Of a stretch of 64,000 nucleotides of DNA, positions 17,576 through 62,438 are shown piece after piece (the stretch's first letter is position 1; each line of letters opens with the position of its first letter). The DNA is taken from NCBI GenBank assembly GCA_963753345.1, contig CAVWBU010000040.1, positions 29,117 to 93,116 on the forward strand. Reading direction: 5' to 3'. The DNA is from an uncultured Fibrobacterota bacterium. Its GTDB lineage: Bacteria > Fibrobacterota > Chitinivibrionia > Chitinivibrionales > FEN-1185. A program made the translations under genes and the position numbers. Below the pieces are notes generated by a model. It saw only the letters and a program-made list of their open reading frames with translations, was not told the origin of the DNA and ran no database searches.

Positions 17576-19759
17576 CTACCCCAGAGCAAAGTAGAAGACT
17601 GCACCCTTGTCTTTTTCGCCCTCGGCCCAGACGGTTCCACCGTGCTTGTCCACGATCCTCTTTACAATGGCCAGCCCGATTCCGGTGCCCTTGAATTCCT
17701 TGTCGGAGTGGAGACGAACAAAGGGTTCGAATATCTTTTGTGCATGGGCCATATCGAACCCCGCGCCGTTGTCGCGCACGAAAAGAACGGAGCGGCCGTT
17801 TCTCTGCTGCGCGCCGAATTCAATGACGGCGTCCTCCTTGCGGGACGTGAACTTCCAGGCGTTGCGCATCAAGTTCTCCATAAGCAAGCGTGCAAGGCCG
17901 TTGTCCGCCTTGAGGGTGGGGCCGGGCAAACCTTCGAACCTGACCTTGCGGTCCGGGTTTTCTCTCCCCAGCTCATTGAAAACCGACAGAGCCAACGCGC
18001 CTATGTCAACCGGTTCGCGGCGCACCTCCTGCCGCCCCACGCGCGACAGCACGAGGAGGTTGGCAATGATGTCGGACATTCTCTGGATCGAATTTTCCAC
18101 ATGGCCCAACGCCGTTCCAAAATCCCTGTCGAGCTTCGGCGAATAGTCGCGGAAAACATCGATGCAGCCCATCATCGAATGCAGGGGATTGCGCAAATCG
18201 TGCGACACGGAATAGGCGAACGCCTCAAGATCATGGTTTGCGTTTGTCAATTCGACGGCCTTGAGTTGGAGCTGCTCCTCTATGGCTTGCCGCTCGGTGA
18301 TGTCGATCCCCGTAGCAAGGACGAGAGAAACGCTGCCGTCTTCGTCACGCAGCGCGGAGTTGGCCCATTTGATGAACCGCCGCTCGCCGTCCCTGGCCAC
18401 CCAGTAGTTTTCGAATTCCGCGTCCGCGGTCACCGACCCGTCCACGATCCCCTTAAACACCTCCTTCACCTGTTCTCTTTCTTCATTGACAAGGAGGAAG
18501 TCCCAGAACTGCCTGCTCCGCACCTCATCGAAGGAGTAGCCGGTGGTCTTTTCGCACGCATGGTTGAATATCTGTATCCTGCCTTCCGGGTCAAACCCCG
18601 CGATGAGGCCGCCGGTGGTCTGGATAACCGCATTGCTGAAATTGCGTTCCTTCCGGAGCGTTTCCGTAGAGTTGTCGAGAGCGGCGCGCATGCGAAGGGT
18701 GGTGATGGCGTGTAAGAGGTCGTTTGCCAGCTCGGAGAGGAGTTCCGTTTCGGGGTCTGAAAAGGCGTCCGGCTCTTTCGCATAAATGGTGATGGCGCCC
18801 AGAGGCCTTTGCTGCGCCGGGGAAACAAGCGGAAAAGCAATGGAAGAGGCATAGCCGCGCCGGGTCGCCTGTTCGCGCCAAGGCGCAAATGCCGGGTCGG
18901 TGAGCATGTTCCTGCACCTGCATACTTTACCAGTGCGAATTGCCGTGCCGGTGGGCCCGCGGCCTCGCTCGGTATCGGCCCACGTGATGTTGAGGGATTG
19001 GAGGTATCCTTCCTCGAACCCTGAAAAAACCGCGGGCGTCACCGTTTGTCCCTCGTTATTATCGGCAAACCCGATCCATACCATGGAGTAGCCGCAGTCC
19101 TCAACGACGATCCGGCACACTTCTTTGAGGTACTCGTTTTCACTCCCGGCATGCAACATGGCCTGGCTGCTTCTCCCGAGCGCCTTGAGCGTGCGGTTGA
19201 GTTTAGAGAGTTCCTCGCTTGCCTTCTGCACCTCGTTGCGGGCCAGAATGGCGTCTTCCATGAGATTGATCGCGGCCCTGCGCGAATCGGAAAGTGCCTT
19301 GTTTGCTTCCTGTATTTCGCCGATGCGCAGCTCCAGTTCGGTATTGAGTTTGTGCAAAGCGGTAATGGTCTGCTTGCGCTCCAGGGCGTAGCGGATGACG
19401 CGCGCCACGGTTTTGCCGCTTGTAGTGCCTTTGACAAGATAGTCCTGCACGCCGCGGCGAATTGCTTCCGCGCCGGCCGTTTCGTCCGCGGCCCCGGTCA
19501 AAACGACTACGGGAAGCGAAGGCGCCGCTTCCAGGATCTTCTGATAGGTTGAAACGCCAGAACTGTCGGGCAACGTCAGGTCGATCAAACCCACATCGAA
19601 CGGTTGTTCACCCAATTTTGCAATGGCATCGGCGAGGCGCTCAACCCACGTGACGGAAAAAAGAACCCCCTGGACTTCCTTAAGACTTTGTTGCAGGAGC
19701 CGGGCGTCGGAGGGACTGTCCTCCACGAGAAGAATTCGTATTTCCAGCGCATCCGCCAT
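17576..19759 (-). CDS. Hybrid histidine kinase REC-GAF-PAS-HisKA-HATPase
   Basis: ILLVED receiver; GRGPTGTAIRTG GAF; PAS; FAYSVSHDLRNPL; NAWKF; DNGAG; GTGIGL. Confidence 0.93.
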   Translation of the reverse strand: MADALEIRILLVEDSPSDARLLQQSLKEVQGVLFSVTWVERLADAIAKLGEQPFDVGLIDLTLPDSSGVSTYQKILEAAPSLPVVVLTGAADETAGAEAIRRGVQDYLVKGTTSGKTVARVIRYALERKQTITALHKLNTELELRIGEIQEANKALSDSRRAAINLMEDAILARNEVQKASEELSKLNRTLKALGRSSQAMLHAGSENEYLKEVCRIVVEDCGYSMVWIGFADNNEGQTVTPAVFSGFEEGYLQSLNITWADTERGRGPTGTAIRTGKVCRCRNMLTDPAFAPWREQATRRGYASSIAFPLVSPAQQRPLGAITIYAKEPDAFSDPETELLSELANDLLHAITTLRMRAALDNSTETLRKERNFSNAVIQTTGGLIAGFDPEGRIQIFNHACEKTTGYSFDEVRSRQFWDFLLVNEEREQVKEVFKGIVDGSVTADAEFENYWVARDGERRFIKWANSALRDEDGSVSLVLATGIDITERQAIEEQLQLKAVELTNANHDLEAFAYSVSHDLRNPLHSMMGCIDVFRDYSPKLDRDFGTALGHVENSIQRMSDIIANLLVLSRVGRQEVRREPVDIGALALSVFNELGRENPDRKVRFEGLPGPTLKADNGLARLLMENLMRNAWKFTSRKEDAVIEFGAQQRNGRSVLFVRDNGAGFDMAHAQKIFEPFVRLHSDKEFKGTGIGLAIVKRIVDKHGGTVWAEGEKDKGAVFYFALG

Positions 19760-19769
19760 TGGAATTTCC

Positions 19770-20216
19770 CTATTCCTTTGTGGGAAGGACAACCACCGAC
19801 AGCCAGAAATGCTCTATGGACCGGACGCATTCGAGGAAGCGGTCAAAGTTCACCGGCTTGGTGACATAACAATTGCAATGGAGCTTATAGGAACGCATGA
19901 TGTCCTTTTCCGCATTTGACGTGGTGAGCACGATGACCGGGATGGTGGTGAAGTCGTCGTCGTTTTTAAGCTCTTCCAACACCTCCCGCCCGTCTTTTCT
20001 GGGAAGGTTGAGGTCGAGCAGGATAAGATCCGGTCTCGGTGATTTTTCGTATTTCCCCTGGCGCCTGAGAAATTCCATTGCCTGCACGCCGTCTTCAACG
20101 TGGTGCAGCTCGTTGGCCACCTTGGCAAGCTTGAGCGCCGATATGGTGAGCTTCGCGTCGCTCGGACTGTCTTCGACCAGCAAGATCTGGATGGGCCGGG
20201 TCTGGATTGGACTCAT
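19770..20216 (-). CDS. Single-domain response regulator (Rcp1-like)
   Basis: ILLVED, RPDLILLDLNLPRKDG, LTTS, YVTKP, FW tail. Confidence 0.93.
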   Translation of the reverse strand: MSPIQTRPIQILLVEDSPSDAKLTISALKLAKVANELHHVEDGVQAMEFLRRQGKYEKSPRPDLILLDLNLPRKDGREVLEELKNDDDFTTIPVIVLTTSNAEKDIMRSYKLHCNCYVTKPVNFDRFLECVRSIEHFWLSVVVLPTKE

Positions 20217-22660
20217 GCCTTTTCTCCTTTGTCCGGAATGGTGAAGTAAAAAGTCGATCCCTCACCGGGAGCGGATTCGACCCATATTTTTCCTCCATGG
20301 CGCTCCACGATTTTCTTGCACACGCTGAGGCCGATGCCGGTGCCTTTGTACTGCGTGCGCGTATGGAGGCGCTGGAATATCATAAATATACGTTCGAAGT
20401 ATTGCGGTTCGATGCCGATTCCATTGTCGCGCACGTGCATTTCCCACGCGCGTTCCTTCCGCTGCGCGCCGATATGTACCTTGGGAGGCCGCGAGCCGTG
20501 GAACTTGATTGCGTTGGCCACGAGGTTCTGAAACAGTTGCGCCATCTGCAATGGGTCGGCATTCACAACAGGAAGCGGATCGCTCTCGACCACGGCGTTG
20601 CTTTCCGCAACAAGCGCCTTAAGGTTCGCAAGCGCCCCATCGAGGGCGTCCTGAAGGTTTACCGACGCGAATTCTCCTCCCCGGGTGCCCACCCGGGAAA
20701 AGGTAAGAAGGCCTTCAATGAGGCTTTGCATCCGTTCCGCGCCGTCCACAGAAAAATCGATGTATTCACGGGCCTGGTCGTCCAATTTGTCGTAGTATTG
20801 GTTCTTAAGCAGGCCCATAAAGCCGCCCACGGCCCGCAGAGGTTCCTGGAGGTCGTGCGAAGCAACGTAGGCGAACTGTTCGAGGTCTTTGTTGCTGCGC
20901 GAAAGGTCCTGTGCCGCGAGGCGGAGGCCTTCCTCGGCCTGCTCGACGGCGTGGCGTGCCTCAATGGCGTCTTTGAGCAGGTTGAGCGCGGCCCGGCGCG
21001 ATCCCCGCAGGTCTTTGTTTGCAGCCTCCAATTCGACGGTGCGCGCCGCGACCAGCTCCTCCAGTCGCCGTTGGTGCGCCGCAAGTTCCTCCTCGGCCCG
21101 TTTGCGCGCCGTCACATCGCGCGCAGCAGCAAAAACCCCCAGTACATTGCCGCCTTCGTCTTTGTAAACTGCGGCGTTGTAGAGGACGTCCGTTAGTGTT
21201 CGATCCTTGTGGCGGATGGTAAGGGGATAATCCTGTACCGTGCCTTTTTCGAACACAAGACGGTAGCCGTGACGCGCCTTTTCTGGTTCCGTAAAGTAAA
21301 TGGAGAAATCGGTGCCAATGAGGCTCTCCTTGGGGAGGCCCGTTGCCCTGATGGTGGCCTCGTTGACATCGGTGATTTTTCCTTCAGCCGAGATCGTTAC
21401 CAGGGGATCGAGAGACGTTTCAAGAAGGTTCCGCGAGTACTGGGCGATTTGTTTCTGAGCCATTGCATCGAGGAGCGCGGCCTCGATCTTCTTGCGCTCG
21501 GTAATGTCCTGGTTGGTGGAAAGAATAAACCCGCGCCCGTTTATCTCAACCGGGTCCATGCTGACGAGTACGTTGCGCAGCATGCCGGACGTGGTGCGGA
21601 ATATCATTTCCACGTTGCGTACGTAGCCGTTCTTCTGAAATTCCTTGAGAACGATTTCCCGCTGCCGGGCTTCGGGCATCAGTTCCAATGCCACGGAAGT
21701 TTTGCCGATAACCTCGTCCTTGCGCGCGAAGCCTGTCATGTCGAGCCACGCCTGGTTCACGTCGTACAGCGTTCCACCGGGTATGGACGCCAACGACATG
21801 CCGATGGGCGCCGCACGGAACATGGTCGAAAACTTCGCTTCGCTCTCCCGCAGCGCCCCTTCGGCCCGCTTGCTTTCGCTGATATCGTTAAAAACGATTG
21901 CGACGTGACGGTCTTCCGGCCTGCCGATGCGATAGGCATATACCTCGAACCAGCGGTCCAATGCCTTGGCTTCATTGACAAAACGCGCCGGCTCGCCCGT
22001 GAGCGCGACGTTCCCGTAAATCTCAAACCAATACGCCTCATGGGCCGGGGCAAGCTCGCGCATAAGCTTTCCCTCGGCGTCGTGCAGCCCGGTCTGCTTT
22101 TCAAAGGCTACGTTGATTTCAAGGAAACGGTAATCGGCGGGCCTGCCCTCTTTGTCAAATATCATCTCGATGATACAGAACCCTTCTTCCATCGTGCTGA
22201 ACAGATTGTGATACCGTTCCTCGCTGATGCGCAGCGATTCTTCCGTCTTCTTGCGCTCGGTGATGTCGGTATACATGGCGAGATTGCCGGTATGTTCGCC
22301 GGAGCGGTCGAAAATGGGTGCGTAGCTGCCGATGGCCCAGAGGCGGGAGCCGTCTTTGCGAAGGAAGCAAACTTCAATTTGAATATTGTTCTTCTTTGTA
22401 AGTTCCTCTCGTGCGGCAATCACCTTTTCTTTCTGGTCCTCGGGCATGAAATCCAGGCCTATTTTGCCGACCAGTTCGTCGATGGAATAACCGAGCATGT
22501 CCGACATCTTCTTGTTTGCAAACGTAATTCTTCCGTCCAGCCCGCCCATCATGATGCCTTCGTTTGCCGTTTCGATGATGCGGCGGTATCCTTCTTCGCT
22601 TTGCCGCAGAGCCTCCCCACTCGAAACCTGCCCTTTGCTGGAATTGATTTCGGCAATCAT
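20213..22660 (-). CDS. Multi-PAS histidine kinase (Cph1-like kinase core)
   Basis: Four PAS/PAC units (DITERK, DISESK, DVTARK); SNKDLEQFAYVASHDLQEPLR; NAIKF; DNGIG; GTGIGL. Confidence 0.93.
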   Translation of the reverse strand: MIAEINSSKGQVSSGEALRQSEEGYRRIIETANEGIMMGGLDGRITFANKKMSDMLGYSIDELVGKIGLDFMPEDQKEKVIAAREELTKKNNIQIEVCFLRKDGSRLWAIGSYAPIFDRSGEHTGNLAMYTDITERKKTEESLRISEERYHNLFSTMEEGFCIIEMIFDKEGRPADYRFLEINVAFEKQTGLHDAEGKLMRELAPAHEAYWFEIYGNVALTGEPARFVNEAKALDRWFEVYAYRIGRPEDRHVAIVFNDISESKRAEGALRESEAKFSTMFRAAPIGMSLASIPGGTLYDVNQAWLDMTGFARKDEVIGKTSVALELMPEARQREIVLKEFQKNGYVRNVEMIFRTTSGMLRNVLVSMDPVEINGRGFILSTNQDITERKKIEAALLDAMAQKQIAQYSRNLLETSLDPLVTISAEGKITDVNEATIRATGLPKESLIGTDFSIYFTEPEKARHGYRLVFEKGTVQDYPLTIRHKDRTLTDVLYNAAVYKDEGGNVLGVFAAARDVTARKRAEEELAAHQRRLEELVAARTVELEAANKDLRGSRRAALNLLKDAIEARHAVEQAEEGLRLAAQDLSRSNKDLEQFAYVASHDLQEPLRAVGGFMGLLKNQYYDKLDDQAREYIDFSVDGAERMQSLIEGLLTFSRVGTRGGEFASVNLQDALDGALANLKALVAESNAVVESDPLPVVNADPLQMAQLFQNLVANAIKFHGSRPPKVHIGAQRKERAWEMHVRDNGIGIEPQYFERIFMIFQRLHTRTQYKGTGIGLSVCKKIVERHGGKIWVESAPGEGSTFYFTIPDKGEKA

Positions 22661-24023
22661 TGTTGTTCCTCCCCGAAATCAACATCATACGCCGGCGGCC
22701 GGCCCAGTTGTTTGCATAAATCGTTGATCTGCTTTTTCAGTTCGATCATGCGCTCTTCGCGGTCCGCCATGGTGCGGTTGAAGAATGTAAGCTCCTCATT
22801 GCCGGCCTTGAGCTCTTCGGTGCGCAGCCGCAGTTCTTCTTCCCCATGTTTGCGGATTTCTATTTCCCTGTTGAGCTCGTCGCGCGAGGCGAGCGTGGTT
22901 TTCAAATCGTTCGTCATTTTGTCAAACGACCGCGACAGGCTGCCCACCTCGTCCTTCAGATTCAACCCGACTTTGTGATCCAGGTTGCCGCTGCCGATGA
23001 TTGCCGCGCCCTTCACCAGCGCATTGATCGGTCCTGAAATGGATTGGGCGATTGAAAACGACATTATGCCGGTGAGAACAAAGACAATGATGAGGATGAT
23101 GAGCACCAAATTTCTCAAACTTGTTACGTCGGCATACGCCTCGGCCGCGTCTATTTTCGCAACCAGTCCCCACTGCATCGAGGGAATATACCGCCACGCC
23201 GCGATCACCTGTTGGCCCCGGTAATCGATTGCCGGGCCATCCCGGTCTTGCCCTCAACGGCCTGTTGAATAGGAAAGGAGGTCATATCTCCTATGGTTGC
23301 TTTTCTTGACAAGGCAGCTTTGGGATCGTGCCTGAGAGGGTTCAGAAATTCAACCTGGTTGCCGATTTTCCTTCCCACCAGGACCTCTCCTGTTTTGCCG
23401 AGGCCGGTAACGTCCTGGATAATTCTGTAAATGGGCGTCATGTCGACTTCAAAAACGATGACTCCTCTAAAAACGCCGTCGAAATCGGTTGCCGGAGCGG
23501 CTATCAGCATCTCGAACCTTTTGTCTTCCGTACTGTCAAAGTAGATTTCGGAAAAGTAAACTCCCTTTTCCCCCTGCTCGAAAGCGTTCTGTTCCACGTC
23601 GAGCCCTTTGGTAAGATCCTTCGAATTATGACCTGGCCTGTTCGCGTAAACGACCTTGCCGTTTGGAAGGACCAGCATGATGTCGGCCATGTTCGAAACC
23701 GCCTGCATATGCTCCAGTTGAACGCCAAGCGCTTTTTTGTAGGCGACAAACTCCGGATCGTTTTCCCCGCCTGCGGCCCGGTTGAGCACGGAAAAGTTCT
23801 TCTTGATAATGTAGAAGCCCTGGGCTATCTCCATGTCCGCTTTGAGTCCGGCAAAGTATTCGTCTATTCTGTCGGCCCTGAACACGGTGAGGTCATTCAA
23901 CTGCGCAAGGCGGTTGTCCTCAAGCGACTTCTTGAAGTTGGTGTAGGTGAGCTCGCTTACCAACAGGAAGGGAATGGTGACAATCGCCAGTAATATGATG
24001 GTGAGCCGTGACCTTATAGGCAT
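22657..24023 (-). CDS. Membrane dCache-HAMP sensor lacking a kinase domain; single frameshift near 23232
   Basis: ORFs 23205-24023 and 22657-23208 join as ...ARAIDYRGQQVIAAWRYIPSMQWGLVAKID if one base is added; TM-Cache-TM-HAMP (DEVGSLSRSFDKM)-coiled coil. Confidence 0.85.
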
Positions 24024-24641
24024 AGCAACCCCGTTCCCAATGCCGCGAACAGCAGCGCCGTGTGCAGCGCCATGGCCGAGTTACAACCTGGAATAAAATA
24101 ATAGAGCAGCGGCACGCCGAAAACGTATCCGATAACGGCCAGCAGGCCTGTCCCGCCCACAATCACTCCTGTGGCCGTCGGCTTGGGCGGCGCCTTGGCC
24201 GGATTAATGATGACAACAATGCCTGCCATGGCAATCAGCAGGAAATCGATTATGGTGGGAATGGACGGTATTCCCGGAACCACGCTCCTTGCGTCGCCGG
24301 GGTCCTTTACAAACAGGCTCTCGATCCCGCTTTCGATGCCGAATACGGCGGAGAAAAAGAGCAGGCCCATGAGAAGGGCAAGGGTAAATGAGGTGATGGA
24401 AAGCGCCACCTGCGCCTTTTCAAACTCGCCCTCGCTCGCTCTTGCCAGAAAGTAAAGAGAGATTCCGCTTATCACAAACGCAAATGCGGTGGAGAATTTC
24501 ATGGTGACAAAGGCCGGACCGATGCTCTTGATGAGCACGATGTCGAACAGCCAGCCCGCCATTACTGCGAGTCCCGCGGCGGTGACGACGAGACGACAGA
24601 ACCTTGACGAAAGTATGGTTGGTTTGGTTTGGCATAGTCAT
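24014..24641 (-). CDS. Stand-alone multi-TM sensor-like membrane protein; probable frameshift near 24593
   Basis: GW.FDI..IKS..P...TMK.STA and MALHTA motifs of kinase N-terminal membrane domains; an upstream MPNQ...KVLS frame joins LVVTAAGLAVMAGW after a 1-nt shift. Confidence 0.65.
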
Positions 24642-24653
24642 TCCAAGAACAAA

Positions 24654-24769
24654 GTCATTGGTCATTGGTCATCAGAAAGAGGTCATTGGAAAAAAGTCAT
24701 TGGGGAAAAGGTTAAGAATATCATTTCTGCATCCTGGTTTCTAATGACAAATGACTAATGACCATTTTT
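24654..24769. repeat. Heptamer arrays (GTCATTR)n ... (NAATGAC)n in inverted orientation
   Basis: GTCATTG-type units 24654-24703; TAATGAC AAATGAC TAATGAC at 24742-24762. Confidence 0.85.
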
Positions 24770-24771
24770 TA

Positions 24772-25194
24772 TTATTCCGCATCTCCCGCCTCCGGGGATG
24801 GATTCGAGTTCCATTGGGGGCCGCTTTCCGCAACGCCCTGATAGTCGTTCCCGATGGATTTGATATACGCATTGAGCATCCGGCCGAGACGATTGAGATC
24901 CTGCTCGAACTTCCGGTGGTCTTCCCCGGAAATCAACTTTCGTTGTTCGGCCTTAAGGAGCCAAGTCTTGGTTTCGAACAGAGATCCTCTGCCGTAGTAG
25001 CCGAAGTGCCTGTTCTCCTTGTAATGGAACCTGCCGAACCCCTCGCTGATGTTCGCGGCAATCGAATCCGCCGCCCTTACAAGCTGCTTCCCTACCGTGT
25101 CTTTTGCAAAGGAATCCCAGCGTGCGACCTCGGTCCAAACGCGTTCCCCGATGTCTATGGCGATCCGGTAGACTTCAAGTTCGTCTAAGGTCAT
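24772..25194 (-). CDS. Four-helix-bundle protein (23S rRNA IVS / bAvd-like family)
   Basis: LEVYR, QLVRAADSIAANISEGFGR, GRGSLFETKTWL, MLNAYIKS. Confidence 0.9.
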   Translation of the reverse strand: MTLDELEVYRIAIDIGERVWTEVARWDSFAKDTVGKQLVRAADSIAANISEGFGRFHYKENRHFGYYGRGSLFETKTWLLKAEQRKLISGEDHRKFEQDLNRLGRMLNAYIKSIGNDYQGVAESGPQWNSNPSPEAGDAE

Positions 25195-25221
25195 GTTGAG
25201 TTCCGCAGGAAGAAGACGTTG

Positions 25222-25340
25222 GTCATTAGTCATTAGTCATTAGTCCCAGTCAACAGCCACCACTCAAGAGACATTTTCCAACAAGCGATCAATATTTTCG
25301 AATGACCGATGACTGATGACAAATGACCAATGACCATTTT
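25222..25340. repeat. Heptamer arrays (GTCATTA)3 ... (NRATGAC)5 in inverted orientation
   Basis: GTCATTA x3 at 25222-25242; five NRATGAC units at 25300-25334. Confidence 0.85.
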
Positions 25341-25342
25341 CT

Positions 25343-28054
25343 CTATTCCTCCACCTTATACATCGGTTCCATCCCCGCCTTCCCGCACAACTCGTTCACC
25401 TGTTTCTTGAGCTCGACCATGCGGAGCTCGCGGTCCACTGCGACACGGTTGAAACGCGACAATTCCTCGTTGGAAACGCGCAGTTCCTCCAAGTGCCGAG
25501 CAATCTCTTCTTCCGCCTTCTTTCGGTCGGTGATATCGCGCAAGATGACCACCGAGGCAACTTCTCCGTCTATTGTGTAAGCTGACACGCGCACGTCCAT
25601 ATCGAACGCCGTTCCGTCTTTCCGAAGGCCGCGGGTTTCGTAACCTGAAGGGGCGGAATCGCCCCGTGCGCGCAGGTGGACGTTCTCCGCAATTACCGGC
25701 CGCTGGGAAGGCGCGATAAGGTCGGTGATCGATTTCCCGATAAGTCCATCGTTGTCTGAGTAGCCGAAAAGCGCAAGGTATGCGGGATTTGCCGCTATAT
25801 GTATTCCGGCTTTCGATACACCTATGGCATCGACAGATGTCTCGAAGATGGCCCGAAGCTTGGCCTCGCTTTCCCGCAGCGCCTCGTCGGCCCGCTTACG
25901 TTCGGTGATGTCCGTATGAACCCACAGCCTGCCGAATATTTCTTCACCGATGCGAATAGTCGTGAAATCGCGCAGCATAACCCGTTCCCCACGCATCACG
26001 ACTTCTTCGGATTTTACGGGCAGGCCCGCACCGACTATTTCGCCTATGCGGGCCACGGCCGCGTCGGGCTCTTTGTACGACGGCCGGATCTTGTCGATTA
26101 TTTCGGCCGCCGACAACCCGGCCAGGCTGTCGGGAGAATCTTTGAGTCCGAAAATATCGCAGAATGCCTGGTTGGCAAATTCCACACGGTCTTGGTTGGT
26201 AACGAGCAGGATGCCGAAATTCATGTTCGAAAGGATCAGGTAGAACCTCATCAGGGTTGTTTGCAGCTTCTCTTCCAACTGCTTACGCTCGGTAATGTCG
26301 TGGGCCACTACCGTCGCGCCAGCTACGGCGCCGTCTTTCCAGTGGAACGTGGTGTTCACGAGCGCCCACACGAGGCGCCCGGCCTTTGTCCGCACCCGGA
26401 ATTCGGTTGATCCCTCGGGCCGCTCGCCTGCCCGCGCCCTGCGGACCCGGGACTCAAAAACGGCCTTTCCTTCGTCGTCAAGGATGTCCTGGGCGGACAT
26501 GGCGAGCAGCTCGTCGCGCGTGTAGCCGAGGACCCGGCACATCACGTCGTTGACTTCCGTGAAACGCCCGGTGGCGAAATCAACGTCATAGATGCCCGCG
26601 GGCGCGTACTGGATCAGGTGACGGTACCGTTCTTCGCTTTGGCGCAAGGCCTCTTCCAACACCATGTGCTCGCTGATGTCCTGTACCGCCACCGCGCACC
26701 CCGCCACCTCGCCGGCCGCGTCCAGGATGGGCGCGGCGCTGTTGTGAACGACGCGTTGCACGCCGTCAAAGCCTGTGATCCGGATGATCTGGCCGACAAC
26801 GGATTCTCCGGTGCGCAACGCCCGGGAAGACGCCCATTCATCGGGCACTATGGTTTTCCCCGTGTCAGCCCATTCCGCCTTGTCTTGAATGTAATCGCCG
26901 ATACTTTTTGCAGCCGGCTTTGGGTTGCCCCAGATGGTATCGAACGCCCGATTTGCAAGGACGGTCCCGCCTTGCGTGTCGAGCACCGCAACGCCCACGG
27001 GAAGGGTCTGCATCACCGCTTCAAGCCGGTTTCTATATTCCACAACCTCGTTCAATTTGTGTTGGGCAAGCTCGTGCGCCGCCTGCGTCGCCCATTCGGC
27101 CTGTTTCTTTTCCGAAATATCGCGGACGGTAAGGACCACATATTCGATTTTCCCTGCATTGTCGAAGACCGGGGCACCGCTGAAGCTTCCATACCATCGC
27201 CGCTTGGTGGGACGGACGTAAACGGAAAACTCCTCGCCCGAAAATGTTTCACCTGCGCAGACCCGGTTCATCGGCAGTTGCCCGATCGAAAGTTCTTTGC
27301 CGTCCGGGCCGGTCAGGTCCATCGTCTTGGCCTCTGCGGACATCACCCGCAGCATGTCGTCTCTCGATCCGAACCCGAACATGGCAAGCGCGGCATTGTT
27401 CATTTCCGTTATTCTTCCCCGCGCGTCGGCTATCACAAGCCCGTCGTGCGTGACAAGGGCGTCGATGAGTTTGCCGGAGCTGCGAAGCGCATCCTGGGCT
27501 TTCTTCCGGCCGGTAATGTCGAGAAGGGCCACCATGCACCGGTCGCCGGAACCGTCGCTACCGCGCACCACCGTGCTTTCGACCTGACACCTGATGGCGG
27601 GACCGTCGCCGTAGCAGCAATCGAGCTCGCATGACTGCTTTTCGTCGCCGACAAACATCCGCCGGCGGAACCTGAACCAGTCCTCCTGGCTTTCGCGGGA
27701 TACCATGCCGGAAAATTGTGTGCGGCCATCCTTGATTTTTGAGCGGTTGAGGCCGAACATTTTCACGGCGGTCAGGTTCGCCTCGGTTATCCGGGTTTCG
27801 CCGTCCAGGGTGAGATACCCCACCGGCGCAAAATCGTACAGCTCCGCAAAACGGTCGCGGGACTCCACGAGTTCGAGCTGCGCCCTCCTAAGGTCCTCGT
27901 TTTGCATTTCCAGCTCGGTCTCGTACACTTGCAGCTCGTGAAGGAGTTTCTGCACGTCGGCCGTCTTTAACGGGGGCGCGGAAGCCGGGTTTTCCCTTAG
28001 TATCGCTTCGGCGTCCTTGCGGAGCTGGGCGATGGAGCGGACTGGAGAATTCAT
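25343..28054 (-). CDS. Multi-PAS sensor protein with no output domain
   Basis: N-terminal LLHELQVYETELEMQNEDL helix; about six PAS/PAC units; ends in a coiled coil without HisKA; the ORF-track extension to 28165 lies in a repeat. Confidence 0.88.
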   Translation of the reverse strand: MNSPVRSIAQLRKDAEAILRENPASAPPLKTADVQKLLHELQVYETELEMQNEDLRRAQLELVESRDRFAELYDFAPVGYLTLDGETRITEANLTAVKMFGLNRSKIKDGRTQFSGMVSRESQEDWFRFRRRMFVGDEKQSCELDCCYGDGPAIRCQVESTVVRGSDGSGDRCMVALLDITGRKKAQDALRSSGKLIDALVTHDGLVIADARGRITEMNNAALAMFGFGSRDDMLRVMSAEAKTMDLTGPDGKELSIGQLPMNRVCAGETFSGEEFSVYVRPTKRRWYGSFSGAPVFDNAGKIEYVVLTVRDISEKKQAEWATQAAHELAQHKLNEVVEYRNRLEAVMQTLPVGVAVLDTQGGTVLANRAFDTIWGNPKPAAKSIGDYIQDKAEWADTGKTIVPDEWASSRALRTGESVVGQIIRITGFDGVQRVVHNSAAPILDAAGEVAGCAVAVQDISEHMVLEEALRQSEERYRHLIQYAPAGIYDVDFATGRFTEVNDVMCRVLGYTRDELLAMSAQDILDDEGKAVFESRVRRARAGERPEGSTEFRVRTKAGRLVWALVNTTFHWKDGAVAGATVVAHDITERKQLEEKLQTTLMRFYLILSNMNFGILLVTNQDRVEFANQAFCDIFGLKDSPDSLAGLSAAEIIDKIRPSYKEPDAAVARIGEIVGAGLPVKSEEVVMRGERVMLRDFTTIRIGEEIFGRLWVHTDITERKRADEALRESEAKLRAIFETSVDAIGVSKAGIHIAANPAYLALFGYSDNDGLIGKSITDLIAPSQRPVIAENVHLRARGDSAPSGYETRGLRKDGTAFDMDVRVSAYTIDGEVASVVILRDITDRKKAEEEIARHLEELRVSNEELSRFNRVAVDRELRMVELKKQVNELCGKAGMEPMYKVEE

Positions 28055-28103
28055 GGCTGACTTCCTTGTAATGAAATTGAACTCTGATTTGACTAGACCT
28101 TCG

Positions 28104-28204
28104 TAACCTCTCCCCCGGCCCCTCTCCTGCCAGAGAGGGGAAAATGCAACCTGTCGCCTTTTCAAAGTCCCTCTCTGATAGGAGAGGGATTTAGGGAGAG
28201 GTTA
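28104..28204. repeat. 101-bp palindromic REP-like element
   Basis: TAACCTCTCCC...GGGAGAGGTTA terminal inverted repeat with two internal CCCTCTC/GAGAGGG hairpins. Confidence 0.9.
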
Positions 28205-28612
28205 TCCTATGTCCATTCCAATCCTAATCTTCACGTTTTCCTCTATTTGCTTCACAACGTTATCAACGGAATTTAACACCTCGTCATTCCAGAACCGCAT
28301 TTCATCCAAACCTCTCAAAGCAAACACATTCCGCCGATGTTCGTCAATCAGTTTCTGTTCTTCTGAGACATGAACTTCTCCATCGACCTCCACCACTAAC
28401 TTGGCCTGATGACAAAAAAAGTCTACGATGAACCCTTCTATAATTTGTTGCCTTCTGAATTTAAGACCTAAAATCTGTTTCCGTCTCACCTGTTCCCAAA
28501 GTTTTGTTTCCGCCTCCGTCATTTTCTGACGCAGGTGTCTTGCCTGCCGAAGCTTGTACTTGTCAACGCGTTGAAGGAGGATTACTCCGCTGCTTGATTC
28601 GGATTTTCTCAT
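28202..28612 (-). CDS. DUF559 (Vsr-like PD-(D/E)XK) endonuclease
   Basis: ARHLRQKMTEAETKLW, KFRRQQII, FIVDFFC, VEVDGEVH, RFWNDEV. Confidence 0.92.
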   Translation of the reverse strand: MRKSESSSGVILLQRVDKYKLRQARHLRQKMTEAETKLWEQVRRKQILGLKFRRQQIIEGFIVDFFCHQAKLVVEVDGEVHVSEEQKLIDEHRRNVFALRGLDEMRFWNDEVLNSVDNVVKQIEENVKIRIGMDIG

Positions 28613-28623
28613 AGTAAGATTTG

Positions 28624-28834
28624 TAACCTCTCCCCCGGCCCCTCTCCTACCAGAGAGGGGGAAATGCAACCTGTCGCTTTTTCAAAGTCCCTCTCTGATA
28701 GGAAAGATGATTCTTGTAATTTTTGTTCCAACCTCTCCCCCGGCCTTTTCATCCTACCAAAGAGGGGAGAAAGACATTTCGGCTGACTTCTTCAAAGTCC
28801 CTCTCTGGTAGGAGAGGGATTTAGGGAGAGGTTG
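28624..28834. repeat. Two further copies of the REP-like element (truncated 28624-28703; full 28729-28834)
   Basis: Near-identical to 28104-28204, including TTCAAAGTCCCTCTCTG.TAGGAGAGGGATTTAGGGAGAGGTT. Confidence 0.9.
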
Positions 28835-31800
28835 TTACTCTCCTGCCCTGTCCATGAGCAGCAGAATCCGGGCCGGGCGTCCTTTTCCGCCTCCATCAAC
28901 GCGCCTTGCATTTATGTGGAACGGGTGCCTGCCCGCCAGGGGGACCTCGATGGAAAGGTCAAGGTTCTTTATCGGGGAAGCCTCGCCGCTCACGGCATCG
29001 GCCAGCCATTTCCGCGCCTCGGGCGCGTTCCACGGTTCGCCCATGAGCTCGAAAACCGTTCTACCTTCGGCCAGTTTCGCGGAAACATGGAAAAGGCCGT
29101 ACCAGCTTGCATTGGCCTGGACAATGCGCAAGTCTTCGTCGAGCACGATCATGGGCTCGCGCATGGACGAGAAGATGCTCTCGAACAGTTCGCGGGCCTC
29201 GCGTCCGGCCGTTTCGGCCAGCTTGACGCGGCCGATGTCCACGAACGTGACCACCAGGCCGTCGATGACGTTACTCGCGGTGCGATAGGGCATGATGCGC
29301 ATCTGGTAACAGGCATTGTCTTTGGTATACACCTCGGCTTCCTTGAAAATGAGCGTTTCGAGCACCTCCCGTGCGTCGCGCTCGAACCCGTCGTACTCGA
29401 TGTTCGAGACAAGATCGCTCACCGGTCTGCCGATGTCGGTGGGAATGAGTTTGACAAGCTTCACCGCCTTGTCGGTGTAGCGCTTGATGTTGAGGTTGCT
29501 GTCCAGGAATATCGTTGCAATCTCGGTGCCGTTGAGCAGGTTCTGCATGTCGTCGTTCGTCTGTGAAAGCTCTTCCACCTTTTTCTGAAGCTCCGCGTTT
29601 ACGGTGGTGAGCTCCTCATTGAGCGACTGCAGTTCCTCCTTTGATGTTTCGAGCTCCTCGTTGGCGCTCTGCATTTCCTCGTTTGTCGACTGCAATTCCT
29701 CGTTGGTGGATTTCAGCTCCTCGTTGGAAGTATCCAATTCTTCCACCGTTGTCCGCAGGGACTCCTTTGCAAATTGCAGATCGCGCTCCAGATCGGTTTC
29801 ACGGGGAACGGCGCCGGCCGGCGCGCTCTTTTTGCGGCCGGATTCTTCTCTGTGAAGCGGCGGAGCCTGCGTAAGGGTCACCAGAAGCAACCCGCGCACC
29901 GGTTCGGGGTCCCGTATCGGCGACACGGAAATATTGACATATTCATAGCCGCCGTTCGCCCGGACGCGGACACGTTCCTGCACCGCCTCCCTGTCCTGGG
30001 AGACCGCGGACCTTACGGCCGAGGCGAGGAATGTCTTGAGGCCCTCGCGCGCCATGTCAAAAATATTGAGCCGCGGCTGACCGGTTCCCGGTTCGAGAAA
30101 GGAGCCGGTGCGGCCGTGGATATACACGATGTCGCCGTGCGGGTCGATCACCACGCACGGAGGCGCGAAGCGTGCGAGCAGCAGTTTCTCCACCACCGCG
30201 GGAATCCGGTCCTTCCTCGGGGAATGGACGGGCGGCGCGAGCGCCGCTTGTCCGGCGTCACGGCCCGGCGGTTCCGCCGGCATGTCGGGCGGTTCCCTGC
30301 CGTCCGCTGTTTCCCTGCGCCTGTAGATTTTCCATTTCTTGTCGACCGTCTCGAAAAGCGCGGAGCTGTCGCCCACGGTTTCCGAAGGGCCCAGAAGCAA
30401 AACGCCGTGCGGCCTGAGGGCATAGTGGAAAATAGGAAGCAGCCGTTTTTGCAAATCGGCATTGAGGTAAATGAGGAGGTTGCGGCACGAGAGCATGTCG
30501 AGCTTTGTAAAGGGAGGGTCCTTGATCACGTTCTGCGGCGCGAAGACGACCATCTCCCGGATTTCCTTCCGGATGCGGTAGATGGGGCCTTCCTTTACAA
30601 AAAAGCGTTCCAGCCGCCGGGGAGACACATCCGCCGCGATACCCGCCGGATAGCGCCCCGTGCGCGCGGTCTCGATGGCTTCGGCGTCGAGGTCGGTGGC
30701 GAAAATCTGCACGGGATGGGGCTTGTTCAACTTCTCGAGGCATTCACGCACCAGCATCGCAATGGTGTAGGCCTCTTCGCCGGTGCTGCACCCGGGTACC
30801 CACACGCGGATGGGGTAATCGTCGGGACGGGACCCAATGAGTTCGGGCAAGACATTTTCGGCCAGGGCGGCGAAGGATTCCGGATCGCGGAAAAAAGAGG
30901 TGACGCTGATAAGCAGCTCCTTGAACAGAACGTTGATTTCGAGCGGGTTTTCCTGCAGGAAGCGCACGTACTGTTCCGGCCGGGATATCCGGTGCACGTT
31001 CATCCTGCGCTCGATGCGCCTGCGGAGCGTGCTCATTTTGTACGACGAAAAATCGTGGCCGAGGCGCGAGCGCAGCAAAACAAAGATTTTTTGCAGCGGC
31101 CGTTCCATTTTCCGAGGAACATCCACGGGCCCGGCGAGCGGGCGCACAAGGTTCATCCCCTTGACATAGGCGACAAGCCGGTCCGGCATGGCCGAGGGCG
31201 GCACGACGTAGTCCGCGATCGACGTGCCGATGGCGCTCATGGGCATGCCCGCATACCGCGCCGACCCCACATCCTGTACCATCGCCATTCCGCCTTCGCC
31301 CTTTATCGCCTTGAGGCCAAGGGTGCCGTCGGAGCCTGTGCCGGACAGCACGACGCATATCGCCCGTTCTTTCCGGTCCTGAGCCAGCGAGCGGAAGAAG
31401 AAGTCGATGGGGAGCGGCGGCATTTCCTTGGCGGGCACTTCCATGAGTTGGAGGGTGGCGTCCATGATTGCCAGATAGGCCCCCGGCGGTGCGACATACA
31501 CATGGTCCGGCTCCACGAGCGCGCCGTCCTTGGCCTGCACGACCGGTATTCTGGTTTCTTTTCCCAACAACTCGGGAAGAAGGCTCGTATGCCCCGGGTG
31601 CTGATGGGTAACCACGATATATGCCATCCCGGTATCGGGAGGCAGGCCTTTGAAAAGATCACAAAGGGCCTCGAGACCGCCTGCCGATGCGCCGATGCCA
31701 ACCACGGGAAAGCCCTTTTCCGGGGCCGGAGAAGGTGCGACGATCGTTCTGCTTTGTGAAGATGAGACCGAACCGCGTTTCTTCTTCGCTGCGGGCTTCC

Positions 31801-31861
31801 GCGGCCGCGCCGTCTTTCGTAATTGTATCATTGCCCGACTCCTGGATAACGAGTCCGCCAT
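28835..31861 (-). CDS. CheB/CheR fusion protein with coiled coil and PAS domains
   Basis: GIGASAGGLEA, LSGTGSDG (CheB); ISVTSFFRD, GCSTGEE, SCRNLLIY (CheR); EELQSTNEE repeats; PAS. Confidence 0.95.
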   Translation of the reverse strand: MADSLSRSRAMIQLRKTARPRKPAAKKKRGSVSSSQSRTIVAPSPAPEKGFPVVGIGASAGGLEALCDLFKGLPPDTGMAYIVVTHQHPGHTSLLPELLGKETRIPVVQAKDGALVEPDHVYVAPPGAYLAIMDATLQLMEVPAKEMPPLPIDFFFRSLAQDRKERAICVVLSGTGSDGTLGLKAIKGEGGMAMVQDVGSARYAGMPMSAIGTSIADYVVPPSAMPDRLVAYVKGMNLVRPLAGPVDVPRKMERPLQKIFVLLRSRLGHDFSSYKMSTLRRRIERRMNVHRISRPEQYVRFLQENPLEINVLFKELLISVTSFFRDPESFAALAENVLPELIGSRPDDYPIRVWVPGCSTGEEAYTIAMLVRECLEKLNKPHPVQIFATDLDAEAIETARTGRYPAGIAADVSPRRLERFFVKEGPIYRIRKEIREMVVFAPQNVIKDPPFTKLDMLSCRNLLIYLNADLQKRLLPIFHYALRPHGVLLLGPSETVGDSSALFETVDKKWKIYRRRETADGREPPDMPAEPPGRDAGQAALAPPVHSPRKDRIPAVVEKLLLARFAPPCVVIDPHGDIVYIHGRTGSFLEPGTGQPRLNIFDMAREGLKTFLASAVRSAVSQDREAVQERVRVRANGGYEYVNISVSPIRDPEPVRGLLLVTLTQAPPLHREESGRKKSAPAGAVPRETDLERDLQFAKESLRTTVEELDTSNEELKSTNEELQSTNEEMQSANEELETSKEELQSLNEELTTVNAELQKKVEELSQTNDDMQNLLNGTEIATIFLDSNLNIKRYTDKAVKLVKLIPTDIGRPVSDLVSNIEYDGFERDAREVLETLIFKEAEVYTKDNACYQMRIMPYRTASNVIDGLVVTFVDIGRVKLAETAGREARELFESIFSSMREPMIVLDEDLRIVQANASWYGLFHVSAKLAEGRTVFELMGEPWNAPEARKWLADAVSGEASPIKNLDLSIEVPLAGRHPFHINARRVDGGGKGRPARILLLMDRAGE

Positions 31862-53758: not shown

Positions 53759-56206
53759 ATGACTGAAAATGCTGACAACCGTAGAAGAGAGATCCAAGAA
53801 CGGATAACTGCGCTCGACTCCGAGAAAGCAAGGCTTCTGAAGGAATTTACTTCACTTCCGGTTCCTTCCGAATTTCCTTCATCTCTCGGAGCCCCCGCCT
53901 CGGCCGTTCCGCTAAAAACATCTGAAGAGCGCATCGCATTATTTACAAGGCTATTTCGAGGACGCGGAGACGTTTTTGCAAAGCTTTGGGAAAACCCATC
54001 AAAGGGTACAAAAGGATATTCACCGGCATGTCAGGTTGAATGGGTTAGAGGGATATGCAATAAGCCCCACATCAAATGCTCCAAATGCCCGAACCGTGTT
54101 TTCATTCCCTTCGATGCAGCGGTTTCACGCAATCACCTTGAAGGAAAAATCACTGTCGGAACCTATGCGCTCCAGGAAAATGATACGTGCAGCTTTCTCG
54201 CAGCTGATTTCGATAAAGAACGATGGCATGAAGATATACTTGCATATAAAATGGCAGCAAAGAGTTTGGGCATTGACGTATACATCGAACGCTCACGCTC
54301 GGGCAACGGTGGTCATGCTTGGATATTCTTTAGTGAGCCAGTTCCCGCCCATATAGCGCGACAGCTCGGAACCATCATCCTCACTCATGCTGCTGCACAA
54401 AGATATCTCATCAATTTCGAAAGCTACGACAGATTTTTCCCAAGTCAAGACACGATGCCAAAAGGCGGATTCGGAAATTTAATCGCTCTTCCCCTTCAGC
54501 GAATTCCTCGAAAAAGCGGAAATAGCGTTTTCGTCGATGATAATTTCAATCCGTTCCCTGATCAATGGGAGTTGCTACGATCTATCCAACTTCTGGCTTA
54601 CGAGGATGTCACGAATGTAATCCGAAAAAATTCTAATCCTCTGACTTTTAAATCTGATTCACTGCCGATGGATCCCGATGTTTTTGAAGCGAATTCTGTC
54701 CTTGAACCCTCCAACTCAAAAATAAGGGATATTTATCAAGGAGATATTGTCCTGAAATATAAGCAAATGCTCGAATTATCCGTAGAAGGTTTACCTTCAC
54801 GCCTGATTGCTGCATTCAAAAGATCCGCGACTTTCGCTAATCCCAAATTTTTTGAACTTCAGCGTATGCGCTTTTCGACGTGGAAAACACCTCGATATAT
54901 TTGCTGTGCGGAACTTTCAGACGACTATTCTCGGATGATTCTTCCCCGTGGCCTTTTATCACAAATCCTTGATATTGCCCGAACGGCTGGTGCGAATGTG
55001 GTTCTTTCGGATCTGCGAAAAACCTATTCGAAGAAAAAAATCGCTTTCAAAGGAGACCTCGTTTCATCGCAGAAGAAAGCACTTCGCGATCTACTTAAAG
55101 AAGATTCCGGCATCCTTGTTGCGCCGCCAGGGGCTGGCAAAACCGTCATTGCCTGCTCCTACATTGCTAAACGCAAATTGCCGACTCTTGTTCTCGTCCA
55201 TAGAAAGCAACTGGTCGACCAATGGAAAAAACAATTGCTAAAATTTACCAATCTTGTAAAAAAGGAGATCAAAACTTTCTCCAAGGACGGAATTAAGGGA
55301 ATTGTTAATATTGGTATGCTTCAGTCCCTTTCACGGGAAAAAGCAATGGATCGGATAATCGATGATTACGGAACCGTAATTGTCGATGAATGCCATCACA
55401 TACCAGCTGCGTCCTTTGAACCGGTGCTCAGGTGTATCTCTGCAAGACATTTTCTCGGCTTAACGGCAACTCCCTACAGAAAAGATGGCCTTGAGAAAAT
55501 TATCTGCATGCAATGCGGCCCAATCCTGCATACAATGACCGAAACAAGTGGACAATTGCAAATTGTCCGTCGTGTGATTGTGAGAGAATCATCATTTCAA
55601 ATCCCCGGCGAAACAACAATGCAATTACCTCTCCATGAAATCTGGCAGGCATTGACAAATGATGCAGCCCGCTTAAAGCTGATCGCTTCCGATGTAATCG
55701 TTTCCCTTAACGAAGGGAGATTCCCGCTTATTCTTTCCGACAGAAAAGACCATCTCGAAAAGCTGCTCAAGGAAATCCAAATTATGCAAAATAACAACCA
55801 AATGGTCAATGGTTTTATCCTGACAAGTGATACAGGTAAGAAAAACAGAGATTGGATTCTAAGCACGGCTAAAGATCTCTATCAAAAAGGCCAAAAACCT
55901 TTTCTGCTTTCCACCGGTTCGCTGATTGGTGAAGGGTTTGATTTGCCGGAACTCAGTACCCTTATGCTGGCAATGCCGTTATCATTCAAGGGACGGCTTG
56001 TCCAATATGCCGGTCGCCTGCATCGTGAGAGCCCAGGGAAAAGCGATGTCCGCATATATGACTATGTTGACATCAATTTCGGATTAGGAATAACGATGTT
56101 TAGAAAACGGTTGACGACCTACCGGAAGATGGGATATGAGCTGGAAATGCCAGAGAATTCTTTGTTTAATTCGGAAATGAAAAAAAGAAAATTTTCAGTT
56201 CAATAA
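53759..56206 (+). CDS. AEP/primase-like domain fused to SF2 (DEAD/ResIII) helicase (TOTE-conflict-system-like)
   Basis: LFRGRGDVFA, GYSPAC Zn motif, FLAADFD, ERSRSGNGGHAW, GFGNLIALPLQ; APPGAGKT, DECHH, GLTATP, GEGFD, QYAGRLHR. Confidence 0.85.
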   Translation: MTENADNRRREIQERITALDSEKARLLKEFTSLPVPSEFPSSLGAPASAVPLKTSEERIALFTRLFRGRGDVFAKLWENPSKGTKGYSPACQVEWVRGICNKPHIKCSKCPNRVFIPFDAAVSRNHLEGKITVGTYALQENDTCSFLAADFDKERWHEDILAYKMAAKSLGIDVYIERSRSGNGGHAWIFFSEPVPAHIARQLGTIILTHAAAQRYLINFESYDRFFPSQDTMPKGGFGNLIALPLQRIPRKSGNSVFVDDNFNPFPDQWELLRSIQLLAYEDVTNVIRKNSNPLTFKSDSLPMDPDVFEANSVLEPSNSKIRDIYQGDIVLKYKQMLELSVEGLPSRLIAAFKRSATFANPKFFELQRMRFSTWKTPRYICCAELSDDYSRMILPRGLLSQILDIARTAGANVVLSDLRKTYSKKKIAFKGDLVSSQKKALRDLLKEDSGILVAPPGAGKTVIACSYIAKRKLPTLVLVHRKQLVDQWKKQLLKFTNLVKKEIKTFSKDGIKGIVNIGMLQSLSREKAMDRIIDDYGTVIVDECHHIPAASFEPVLRCISARHFLGLTATPYRKDGLEKIICMQCGPILHTMTETSGQLQIVRRVIVRESSFQIPGETTMQLPLHEIWQALTNDAARLKLIASDVIVSLNEGRFPLILSDRKDHLEKLLKEIQIMQNNNQMVNGFILTSDTGKKNRDWILSTAKDLYQKGQKPFLLSTGSLIGEGFDLPELSTLMLAMPLSFKGRLVQYAGRLHRESPGKSDVRIYDYVDINFGLGITMFRKRLTTYRKMGYELEMPENSLFNSEMKKRKFSVQ

Positions 56207-56261
56207 AATCTGCTTCAATCTTTAAATTGCTTCAAATTGTAGGCATATATATATTATCTGC

Positions 56262-56867: not shown

Positions 56868-56869
56868 AA

Positions 56870-57778: not shown

Positions 57779-57837
57779 AAAGATAGCCTAACACCAAATC
57801 TTATTGAAATAGGATCCAGATCCTGCTATTTATCGAA

Positions 57838-58263: not shown

Positions 58264-58443
58264 AAATGGAACTCCTTCCCGACTCTCGAAATTACATGCT
58301 GATCGTGCTGAAAAAGAAGAGGCCAGCACCAAAATGCCGGCCCCTTTTTCCCCAACACTATTCAACATCCGATCATTCATCATTGAAGAGTGAAAAGGAT
58401 ATGATTCGTGGCGTGCGCCCGGCCGGCCGCATTGACCACGATC

Positions 58444-58650
58444 CTAATCAAAGCACCTATTGACTTTTGATATTTCTGCCAGCTCAGATTCGAATTCATA
58501 ACAACAGGCGGCCGATACCGCCTCCGCATCATCGGCGGTATCGGCCGCGAGCCGAAGATTCTTTCCGTTCTCATAAAATCGCACGAACAATTTTCCGCTT
58601 ATCGGATCTCGAAACAAAACCACTGCATTTCTTCCCATTTGCGTTACCAC
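58444..58650 (-). CDS. Small hypothetical protein
   Basis: 68-aa ORF; start uncertain; contains a perfect inverted repeat. Confidence 0.35.
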   Translation of the reverse strand: MVTQMGRNAVVLFRDPISGKLFVRFYENGKNLRLAADTADDAEAVSAACCYEFESELAEISKVNRCFD

Positions 58651-58980: not shown

Positions 58981-59000
58981 ATTTTCTGCCGTCATTCCTT

Positions 59001-60927: not shown

Positions 60928-60928
60928 T

Positions 60929-62436: not shown

Positions 62437-62438
62437 TT

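Follow-up and report, generated by a model that had tools for sequence, protein, structure and literature searches.

Environmental bacterial genomes are full of multi-PAS and other sensors without an output domain, and the route by which these sensors signal is mostly unknown. The question is raised by a gene cluster in a 64,000-nucleotide stretch of DNA from an uncultured Fibrobacterota bacterium (contig CAVWBU010000040.1, positions 29,117 to 93,116 of the forward strand; the whole of this stretch is referred to here as the window). Two sensors of the cluster carry no output domain and end in nearly the same C-terminal tail, and two histidine kinases of the same cluster share a different internal helix. 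A preliminary description of the window proposed that the tail and the helix are cognate docking modules, through which separate sensors plug into kinases in trans and form a combinatorial network. How do such sensors reach a kinase, and is the tail the means by which they do so? The pairing of tail and helix is real and widespread, and the two motifs are a colinear pair in which the tail element lies upstream of its partner's element. They may well be a dedicated pair of docking elements by which sensor modules are joined to kinases non-covalently, a reading to which a probability of roughly 0.6 is assigned, with the physical binding inferred from sequence patterns.

The tail and helix motifs

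About 45 residues make up the tail, a conserved C-terminal module with the consensus EL..NEEL.RFNRaaV.RELRMIELKKeVNeLc...G.P.rY. The helix is about 25 residues long, has the consensus L..SR.AALNLMEDA..AR..AE and lies ahead of a PAS, GAF or phospho-acceptor domain in the kinase coiled coil. In six-frame reading frames of the 4,516,072-base assembly (55 contigs), the tail pattern and the strict helix pattern have two matches each, all in this cluster, and a loose helix pattern adds one unrelated match. The earlier observation that neither motif is seen elsewhere in the window extends in this way to the 4.5 Mb genome. Pfam and NCBIfam have no model for either motif, and neither profile matches PDB chain sequences at E below 0.1. 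An ESM Atlas search with the second tail of the window returns solely unnamed clusters with scores below 0.9, and no description of either motif or of the pair was found in the accessible portions of the open-access literature, in line with the earlier statement that no characterised name is known for the pair.

Relatives of the tail were sought in a database with the last 61 residues of the multi-PAS sensor of the window, and 32 proteins were returned. The tail core is located 20–45 residues from the C-terminus in 30 of them, whatever the upstream domains, and the architectures that precede it are PAS-only, GAF, Cache-HAMP, HisKA_3-HATPase and CheB-CheR-PAS, the last in 6 of the 32. A scan of one genome per species gave 469 confirmed stretches, from which 78 tail loci were kept; reading frames in the locus analyses run from stop to stop and are not called genes. 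These loci span at least 12 phylum-level groups, which include Deltaproteobacteria/Thermodesulfobacteriota, Nitrospirota, Verrucomicrobiota, Planctomycetota, Lentisphaerae, Acidobacteriota, Spirochaetota, Fibrobacterota, Anaerolineales, Abditibacteriaceae, two proteobacterial labels and one Methanomicrobiales archaeon. The tail profile ends 0–41 residues before the end of the reading frame in all 78 loci.

Domains were assigned in 67 complete tail reading frames, with 19 frames that run off the locus or are shorter than 100 residues and 2 that are too long left aside. PAS domains are present in about 50 of the 67, CheB-CheR fusions in 12, GAF in 11, REC in 6, HAMP in 5 and HATPase_c in 4. The tail had been described as a feature of kinase-less sensors, which does not hold for the 4 proteins with HATPase_c or for the 12 CheB-CheR-PAS enzymes. 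Pfam finds no methyl-accepting chemotaxis protein (MCP) signal domain, CheW or CheA in the window proteins or in the 67 tail proteins. An alignment by eye had suggested that the tail might be a phospho-acceptor helix without a histidine; this was dropped because Pfam gives no HisKA match over either window tail; the tail consensus contains no histidine.

The helix profile used in the tail loci, A2, was built solely from kinases of the window's own family, which were found with a segment of the first window kinase. A search with the helix profile returns 1420 representatives among 1.84 billion, 349 of them at E up to 1e-10. The helix motif is therefore rare, and its placement beside tails cannot be chance. 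In the tail loci, 59 helix proteins were scanned (2 of 61 were omitted for length). About 45 of the 59 carry kinase domains, with phospho-acceptors of four families, HisKA, HisKA_3, HisKA_2 and HWE, and their N-terminal parts contain MASE3, HAMP, REC, PAS, GAF, PocR, MEDS or DUF4118. Since its carriers are kinases of four phospho-acceptor families with varied sensors, the helix is an independent module. The remaining helix proteins mostly run off the locus or have the helix followed by a C-terminal tail. Such helix-then-tail proteins make up 6 of the 61 helix reading frames and 15 of the best 150 helix representatives, and the helix is not confined to kinases as the preliminary description had it. 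Among these best 150, 145 fit the core pattern and 7 have two cores, which in three cases are 35 residues apart.

Conservation is unbroken over 17 consecutive positions of the tail and 9 of the helix and includes all helix faces. This exceeds the need of a two-stranded coiled coil and is the pattern expected if another helix packs on the dimer. Invariant tail residues are encoded by up to six synonymous codons, and over 80 tails the third-position identity is 52%, as against an amino-acid identity of 82%. Because synonymous codons vary freely, selection evidently acts on the protein, and by the same evidence the tail matches are not chance. When the tail and helix profiles are compared, the alignment is confined to 17 upstream columns of generic heptads, at a probability of 16%, and the cores do not align. 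The heptads common to both motifs upstream read E-R-T-.-E-L-.-.-A-N, and both motifs hold conserved acidic residues.

Gene order, co-occurrence and natural fusions

The helix was called in the tail loci with profile A2 over six-frame reading frames at an independent E below 0.001. A helix on the same strand downstream of the tail is found in 56 of the 78 loci, and in 51 of the 59 loci that have at least 3 kb of downstream sequence. Upstream helices are limited to 2 of the 78 loci (L072, where the helix lies in the same protein, and L117), and no helix is found on the opposite strand. The distance between the tail end and the helix varies from 47 to 5161 bases. The helix begins 47–83 bases past the tail in 4 loci, and it occupies the N-terminal position of the partner in just 4 of the 56; the other helices sit after REC, PAS, HAMP, MASE3 and further domains, not at the N-terminus. 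In 33 of the 56 loci the helix protein follows as the very next frame, and in the other 23 it is separated from the tail frame by 1–5 reading frames. The intervening frames encode NMT1-like binding proteins (12 frames in 11 loci), KaiC with or without KaiB (5 loci), CheB-CheR proteins (2 loci) and other kinases or receivers. An RNA-level element that acts by translational coupling was also considered and was rejected, as synonymous codons vary freely and the distance to the helix is variable.

Genome co-occurrence was determined in three phylum samples. In the window's own phylum, 23 of 296 genomes have the tail, 15 have the helix and 12 have both, versus about 1.2 expected under independence. 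The window's family accounts for 7 of these 12 genomes, and outside this family the tail is present in 16, the helix in 8 and both in 5 of 288 genomes. The other two samples were searched with the wider profiles A3 and A4. In the phylum of a Nitrospirae metagenome-assembled genome (MAG; L090), the tail is found in 54, the helix in 12 and both in 12 of 251 genomes, and 11 of the 13 helix matches lie 0.56–4.1 kb downstream of a tail; the 2 remaining matches are on other contigs, and one of the two is 888 bases away from the end of its contig. In the phylum of Geobacter sp. OR-1 (L097), the corresponding numbers are 37, 8 and 6 of 201 genomes, and 6 of the 9 helix matches lie 0.75–2.1 kb downstream of a tail. 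When these two samples are combined, a tail is present in 18 of the 20 helix genomes and 17 of the 22 helix matches lie 0.56–4.1 kb downstream of a tail. Additionally, in three genomes that were searched singly, the sole helix is the one behind the tail. Taken over the 78 loci and the three phylum samples, the genome and operon co-occurrence of the motif profiles strongly favours the cognate pair that had been proposed.

Natural fusions feature both motifs in one chain. Protein P0035 of genome G254 consists of PAS, tail, a 30-residue Pro/Gly-rich linker, helix, PAS and a HisKA_2 kinase in a single chain. Its closest relatives are cut within the linker into a PAS-tail protein and a helix-PAS-kinase protein, and they are 83–98% identical to P0035 over the matched parts. 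These split pairs are P0036 with P0040 and P0037 with P0039, and within each pair the longest contigs are equal in length (11351 and 3976). P0038 and P0044, two further relatives, lack the 68 residues of tail and linker, and in this direct form the upstream helix is joined directly to a helix in which the N and ED signature is replaced. In genomes G034 and G026 the tail is followed by the helix in one chain, about 110 residues apart, before HisKA.

Loci with weaker, partial tails are also paired. Nineteen loci with such divergent tails and no helix at threshold were inspected, and 12 of them contain a divergent ..LN[IM][LMV]ED.. motif 0.15–1.9 kb downstream on the strand of the tail. About 0.5 matches are expected in these 19 loci, based on 13 matches of such a pattern in 5.9 million residues of the window's own genome. 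The variants occur in combinations: a tail of the type ...RFNRLTVDREHRMIQLK is paired with a ...RLAMLNIMEDL helix, and a tail of the type ...KFY.MAVGRELKMKELK is paired with a ...RDAFLNMLEDV helix.

Several loci have features of their own. In 5 of the 23 loci where other genes intervene (L096, L104, L108, L117 and L120), KaiC, mostly with one or two KaiB genes, is encoded between the tail sensor and the helix kinase, so that non-cyanobacterial Kai modules are wired to the pair. A gene for a periplasmic binding protein of the NMT1/THI5-like type is regularly located after the tail gene and before helix kinases of the HAMP type (L075, L077, L089, L090, L093, L095, L110, L118, L131 and L142). Contig C48 of Geobacter sp. 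OR-1 (G297) has seven tail-like matches on one strand within 16 kb, at 29–45 kb, which is possibly an array of tail-bearing sensors; the single canonical helix of this genome is on another contig, beside the best tail. The kinase of L156 (G412:C64), which is directly downstream of a divergent tail gene, has three tandem divergent helix copies at its N-terminus, 21 residues apart.

Proposed docking of sensors on kinases and other explanations

Docking is the simplest account of these results: a strictly C-terminal tail, a gene order that is fixed, obligate co-occurrence of the motifs and a cut point between them in natural fissions. The cognate relationship claimed in the preliminary description is strongly favoured by co-occurrence, gene order and the fusions and fissions, and from the same patterns we infer the docking and the signalling in trans that it also claimed. 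In the proposed mechanism, the tail would continue the coiled coil that leaves the sensor's last PAS or HAMP domain. A dimeric tail would then dock on a dimeric helix as a helical bundle that replaces the covalent coiled-coil junction, and the conformational state of the separate sensor would pass to the kinase coiled coil without a covalent link. Direct binding, a 2:2 stoichiometry, the bundle geometry and signal transfer are predicted features of this mechanism. The gene order, from upstream sensor to downstream kinase and often with an overlap of stop and start codons, agrees with the general principle of assembly in the order of translation. In the window, the multi-PAS and Cache-HAMP sensors would feed one or both of the two kinases from one operon. 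Because the kinases keep their own upstream REC or PAS domains, the helix could be a node where two inputs meet, and the helix-then-tail proteins may act as relays that pass the signal on. A combinatorial network, as was proposed earlier, is plausible, since some genomes have several tails per helix and some kinases have two helix cores.

A broader form of the docking hypothesis has about even odds. The tail and helix would constitute a general plug-and-socket for prokaryotic sensor kinases, in which interchangeable inputs are placed on kinases of any phospho-acceptor family via a hetero-oligomeric tail-helix bundle. The input modules would be PAS arrays, Cache-HAMP receptors, CheB-CheR modifying enzymes and helix-plus-tail relay adaptors. 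Each sequence subfamily of the motifs would be an address code orthogonal to the others, and a kinase that has two helix cores would receive several inputs.

Several results weigh against docking or limit the case for it. Mutual information over 64 tail-helix pairs gives no column pair above the family-wise null and the top pairs are driven by four divergent loci, so that the inter-protein coevolution suggested as a check in the preliminary description is not seen in this set. Tail-like matches without a helix at threshold occur in 42 of 54 genomes in the phylum of the Nitrospirae MAG and in 31 of 37 in the Geobacter phylum, and helix genomes without a tail at threshold number 3 of 15 in the window's own phylum and 2 of 8 in the Geobacter phylum. 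Seven of the 19 divergent loci have no helix-like motif, and their tail-like ends lack the G.P..Y cap. Related genomes are non-independent samples, large genomes had part of their initial candidates scored in the profile search, and the reading frames extend from stop to stop rather than being called genes. AlphaFold2 monomer models of the natural fusion (356 and 142 residues) have two confident helices and a low-confidence linker, with predicted template modelling scores (pTM) of 0.42 and 0.36, and are uninformative on packing. A complex prediction for two helix and two tail segments with alignments, which was run without controls, gave a score of 0.01 and no verdict.

The best surviving alternative, though an unlikely one, is that the motifs are functionally linked but do not bind each other, and are both target sites of a third factor that acts on the coiled coils of sensor and kinase, for instance a CheB-CheR-type methyltransferase/esterase or some other partner that they have in common. 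The CheB-CheR-PAS architecture recurs in 12 of the 67 tail carriers and 6 of the 32 database relatives, CheB-CheR genes lie between tail and helix genes in two loci, and one is located just upstream of the sensors in the window. The conserved acidic residues of both motifs are compatible with such a role, and a CheR-like enzyme that methylates the signalling helix of a kinase has been published (RsbM and RsbK, PMC4574943). However, most loci have no CheB-CheR gene within the 12 kb examined, and the fused, split and direct states put both motifs exactly at the junction of a single chain, for which direct contact is the simpler explanation.

Slightly less probable again is a gene-fission scar, in which the linker was once continuous, the tail now serves its own protein, for example in homo-oligomerisation or stability, and the helix is an ordinary in-line coiled coil. 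The fused and split forms among near-identical homologues, the generic heptads that precede both motifs (17 aligned columns) and the simple helices of the AlphaFold2 models all agree with this explanation. A scar should decay, yet the motifs hardly vary across at least 12 phylum-level groups, an archaeon among them, and divergent tails retain divergent helices. Additionally, the helix usually follows the kinase's own REC, PAS or HAMP domains instead of being N-terminal, and it is hardly ever found in a genome without an adjoining tail.

Chance or lineage sharing, in which popular linker variants of PAS-rich kinases happen to cluster, is scarcely tenable: multi-PAS proteins do often duplicate and shuffle and 7 of the 12 co-occurring genomes of the own phylum are from one family, but this explanation is already contradicted by the polarity (56 downstream, 2 upstream, 0 on the opposite strand), the replication of the pairing in two other phyla and the rarity of the motifs (for the helix the 1420 representatives given above, and 12–15 genomes per 250–300 in the own and Nitrospirae-MAG phylum samples). 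None of these alternatives accounts for the polarity, the rarity and the position of fusion and fission as well as docking does.

The window cluster, known systems and significance

The window cluster is tight and lies entirely on the minus strand. In upstream-to-downstream order it encodes a CheB-CheR-PAS fusion, a DUF559 protein, the five-PAS sensor, a 23S-rRNA-intervening-sequence-type protein, a membrane protein, the Cache-TM-HAMP sensor (TM, transmembrane), kinase 1, a response regulator and kinase 2, and from the membrane protein through kinase 2 the genes overlap by 4–23 bases. The multi-PAS sensor (25343..28165, 940 residues) has five PAS stretches and nothing else by Pfam. Tail 1 is formed by its last 48 residues, from EELRVSNEEL to MYKVEE (25346..25489). 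The orthologue in the same-genus genome G004 is 1367 residues long and 51% identical, and it also has the tail at its end. The Cache-TM-HAMP sensor (22657..24023; dCache_1 and HAMP by Pfam) carries tail 2 as its last 53 residues, from EELKAGNEEL to FGEEQQ (22660..22818); the G004 orthologue has a tail with 89% identity to this one. By Pfam, the two tail proteins lack an output domain, and both kinases have HisKA and HATPase_c. These assignments bear out the earlier description of two tail sensors without an output domain beside two histidine kinases.

The Cache-HAMP gene was initially treated as coding for one protein. The dCache_1 domain, the HAMP domain and the tail are present, but in the window they are divided between two reading frames, 23205-24023 and 22657-23208, with a frameshift near 23239 inside the Cache domain. 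Contigs of all 4 public runs, from 2 studies, have one extra base behind 23239, which would keep a single frame. Two of the 4 runs have 1360 bases between 22842 and 22859, where the window has 16. The G004 orthologue is a single protein of 1026 residues with about 590 more residues between HAMP and tail; in the alignment the two window frames correspond to residues 1-263 and 263-392 of this protein, and the tail to residues 980-1025. The window copy is a shortened, frameshifted form that is either strain-specific or an assembly fault. Tail 2 itself, judged by its residues, is intact and conserved whichever origin applies. The HAMP domain is confined to residues 53-103 of the 183-residue frame, and Pfam gives no HAMP match over the tail at residues 131-183.

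Kinase 1 (20213..22660, 815 residues) features three to four PAS domains, the helix, HisKA and HATPase_c, and its ATG overlaps the stop codon of the tail 2 gene as ATGA. Its helix (EAANKDLRGSRRAALNLLKDAIEAR) comprises residues 545-569, upstream of HisKA at residues 593-658. The range first given for this helix, 20955-21035, covers it but is one base out of frame, and the true position is 20954..21028 on the minus strand. The ranges given earlier for the two tails (25343-25510 and 22657-22830) and for the second helix (19238-19318) agree with the translations of the minus-strand reading frames. Kinase 2 (17576..19792, 738 residues) consists of REC, helix, GAF, PAS, HisKA and HATPase_c, with helix 2 (EIQEANKALSDSRRAAINLMEDAILAR; 19238..19318) between REC and GAF and HisKA downstream at residues 523-586. 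The single-domain response regulator (19770..20216, 148 residues) overlaps the genes of both kinases.

The CheB-CheR-PAS fusion (28835..31861, 1008 residues by reading frame and Pfam) lies just upstream of the cluster sensors, has no tail and is a possible associated modifying enzyme. It contains a long coiled coil with repeated ..NEEL.. heptads at residues ~690-780. Tail carriers elsewhere share its architecture, 12 of the 67, which raises the question of glutamate methylation in the tail or helix. Two further genes lie between the signalling genes, a DUF559 endonuclease-like gene (28202-28669) and a four-helix-bundle gene of the 23S-rRNA-intervening-sequence type (PF05635; 24772-25233). The related cluster L117 likewise contains a DUF559 gene, and G004 has a 144-residue reading frame in the corresponding place. 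The hydrophobic membrane protein (24014..24562, 182 residues) belongs to no family, and its stop codon overlaps the start of the Cache gene; a 216-residue reading frame is its counterpart in G004. At the end of the window, 53759-64000 has a low GC content of 40–44%, versus about 55%, and features defence-type genes that adjoin RmuC: a TOTE-system primase-helicase, an AbiEi/AbiEii pair, a KAP NTPase and DUF6745.

The known element that is closest in form is the signalling helix (S-helix) of sensor kinases and cyclases, a coiled coil of about 40 residues that connects two domains of one chain (Anantharaman, Balaji and Aravind 2006, PMC1592074). No stand-alone, C-terminal or in-trans form is mentioned in the passages of that paper that were searched. 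No S-helix profile is present in Pfam or NCBIfam. Like the S-helix, both motifs extend the dimeric coiled coil that leaves a PAS, HAMP or REC domain, and the generic upstream heptads are common to them. The tail differs in that it ends its chain in all 78 loci and does not lie between domains, whereas the kinase helix is flanked by domains as the S-helix is, and the cores of tail and helix each have a signature of their own, the two of which do not align.

In the way it would work, the pair is most like the docking domains of modular polyketide synthases and nonribosomal peptide synthetases. There, a helix at the C-terminus of the upstream protein is joined to a helix in the downstream one; the genes are ordered as the proteins assemble, and natural fused and split versions exist. 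The tail and helix resemble these domains in the C-terminal element upstream of its partner, the colinear order and the natural fused and split forms. However, the proteins are unrelated and have no Pfam similarity, the kinase usually holds the socket in its interior, and what is presumably handed over is a conformational signal and not a substrate. In chemoreceptor/CheW/CheA arrays, kinase-less sensors plug into a kinase via a conserved helical region, and CheB/CheR-type enzymes are associated. The logic of separate sensors that feed a kinase, with associated CheB/CheR-type enzymes, is similar here, but the partners are ordinary histidine kinases with phospho-acceptors of four families, and CheW, CheA and the MCP signal domain are absent from the proteins scanned. 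In the RetS-GacS system a kinase is regulated in trans by helix-helix contacts (PMC8498467). Those contacts are located in the phospho-acceptor dimerisation domain of particular proteins, whereas the present motifs are a portable pair outside HisKA that recurs across phyla.

Should the tail prove to be an address label for a kinase with the helix, the kinase partners of hundreds of orphan sensors could be read from sequence. The docking pair, if true, would explain how many output-less "PAS domain S-box" proteins signal. Sensor kinases would then be assembled from separate polypeptides, and the fused, split and relay forms would indicate cut sites that are useful for building biosensors.

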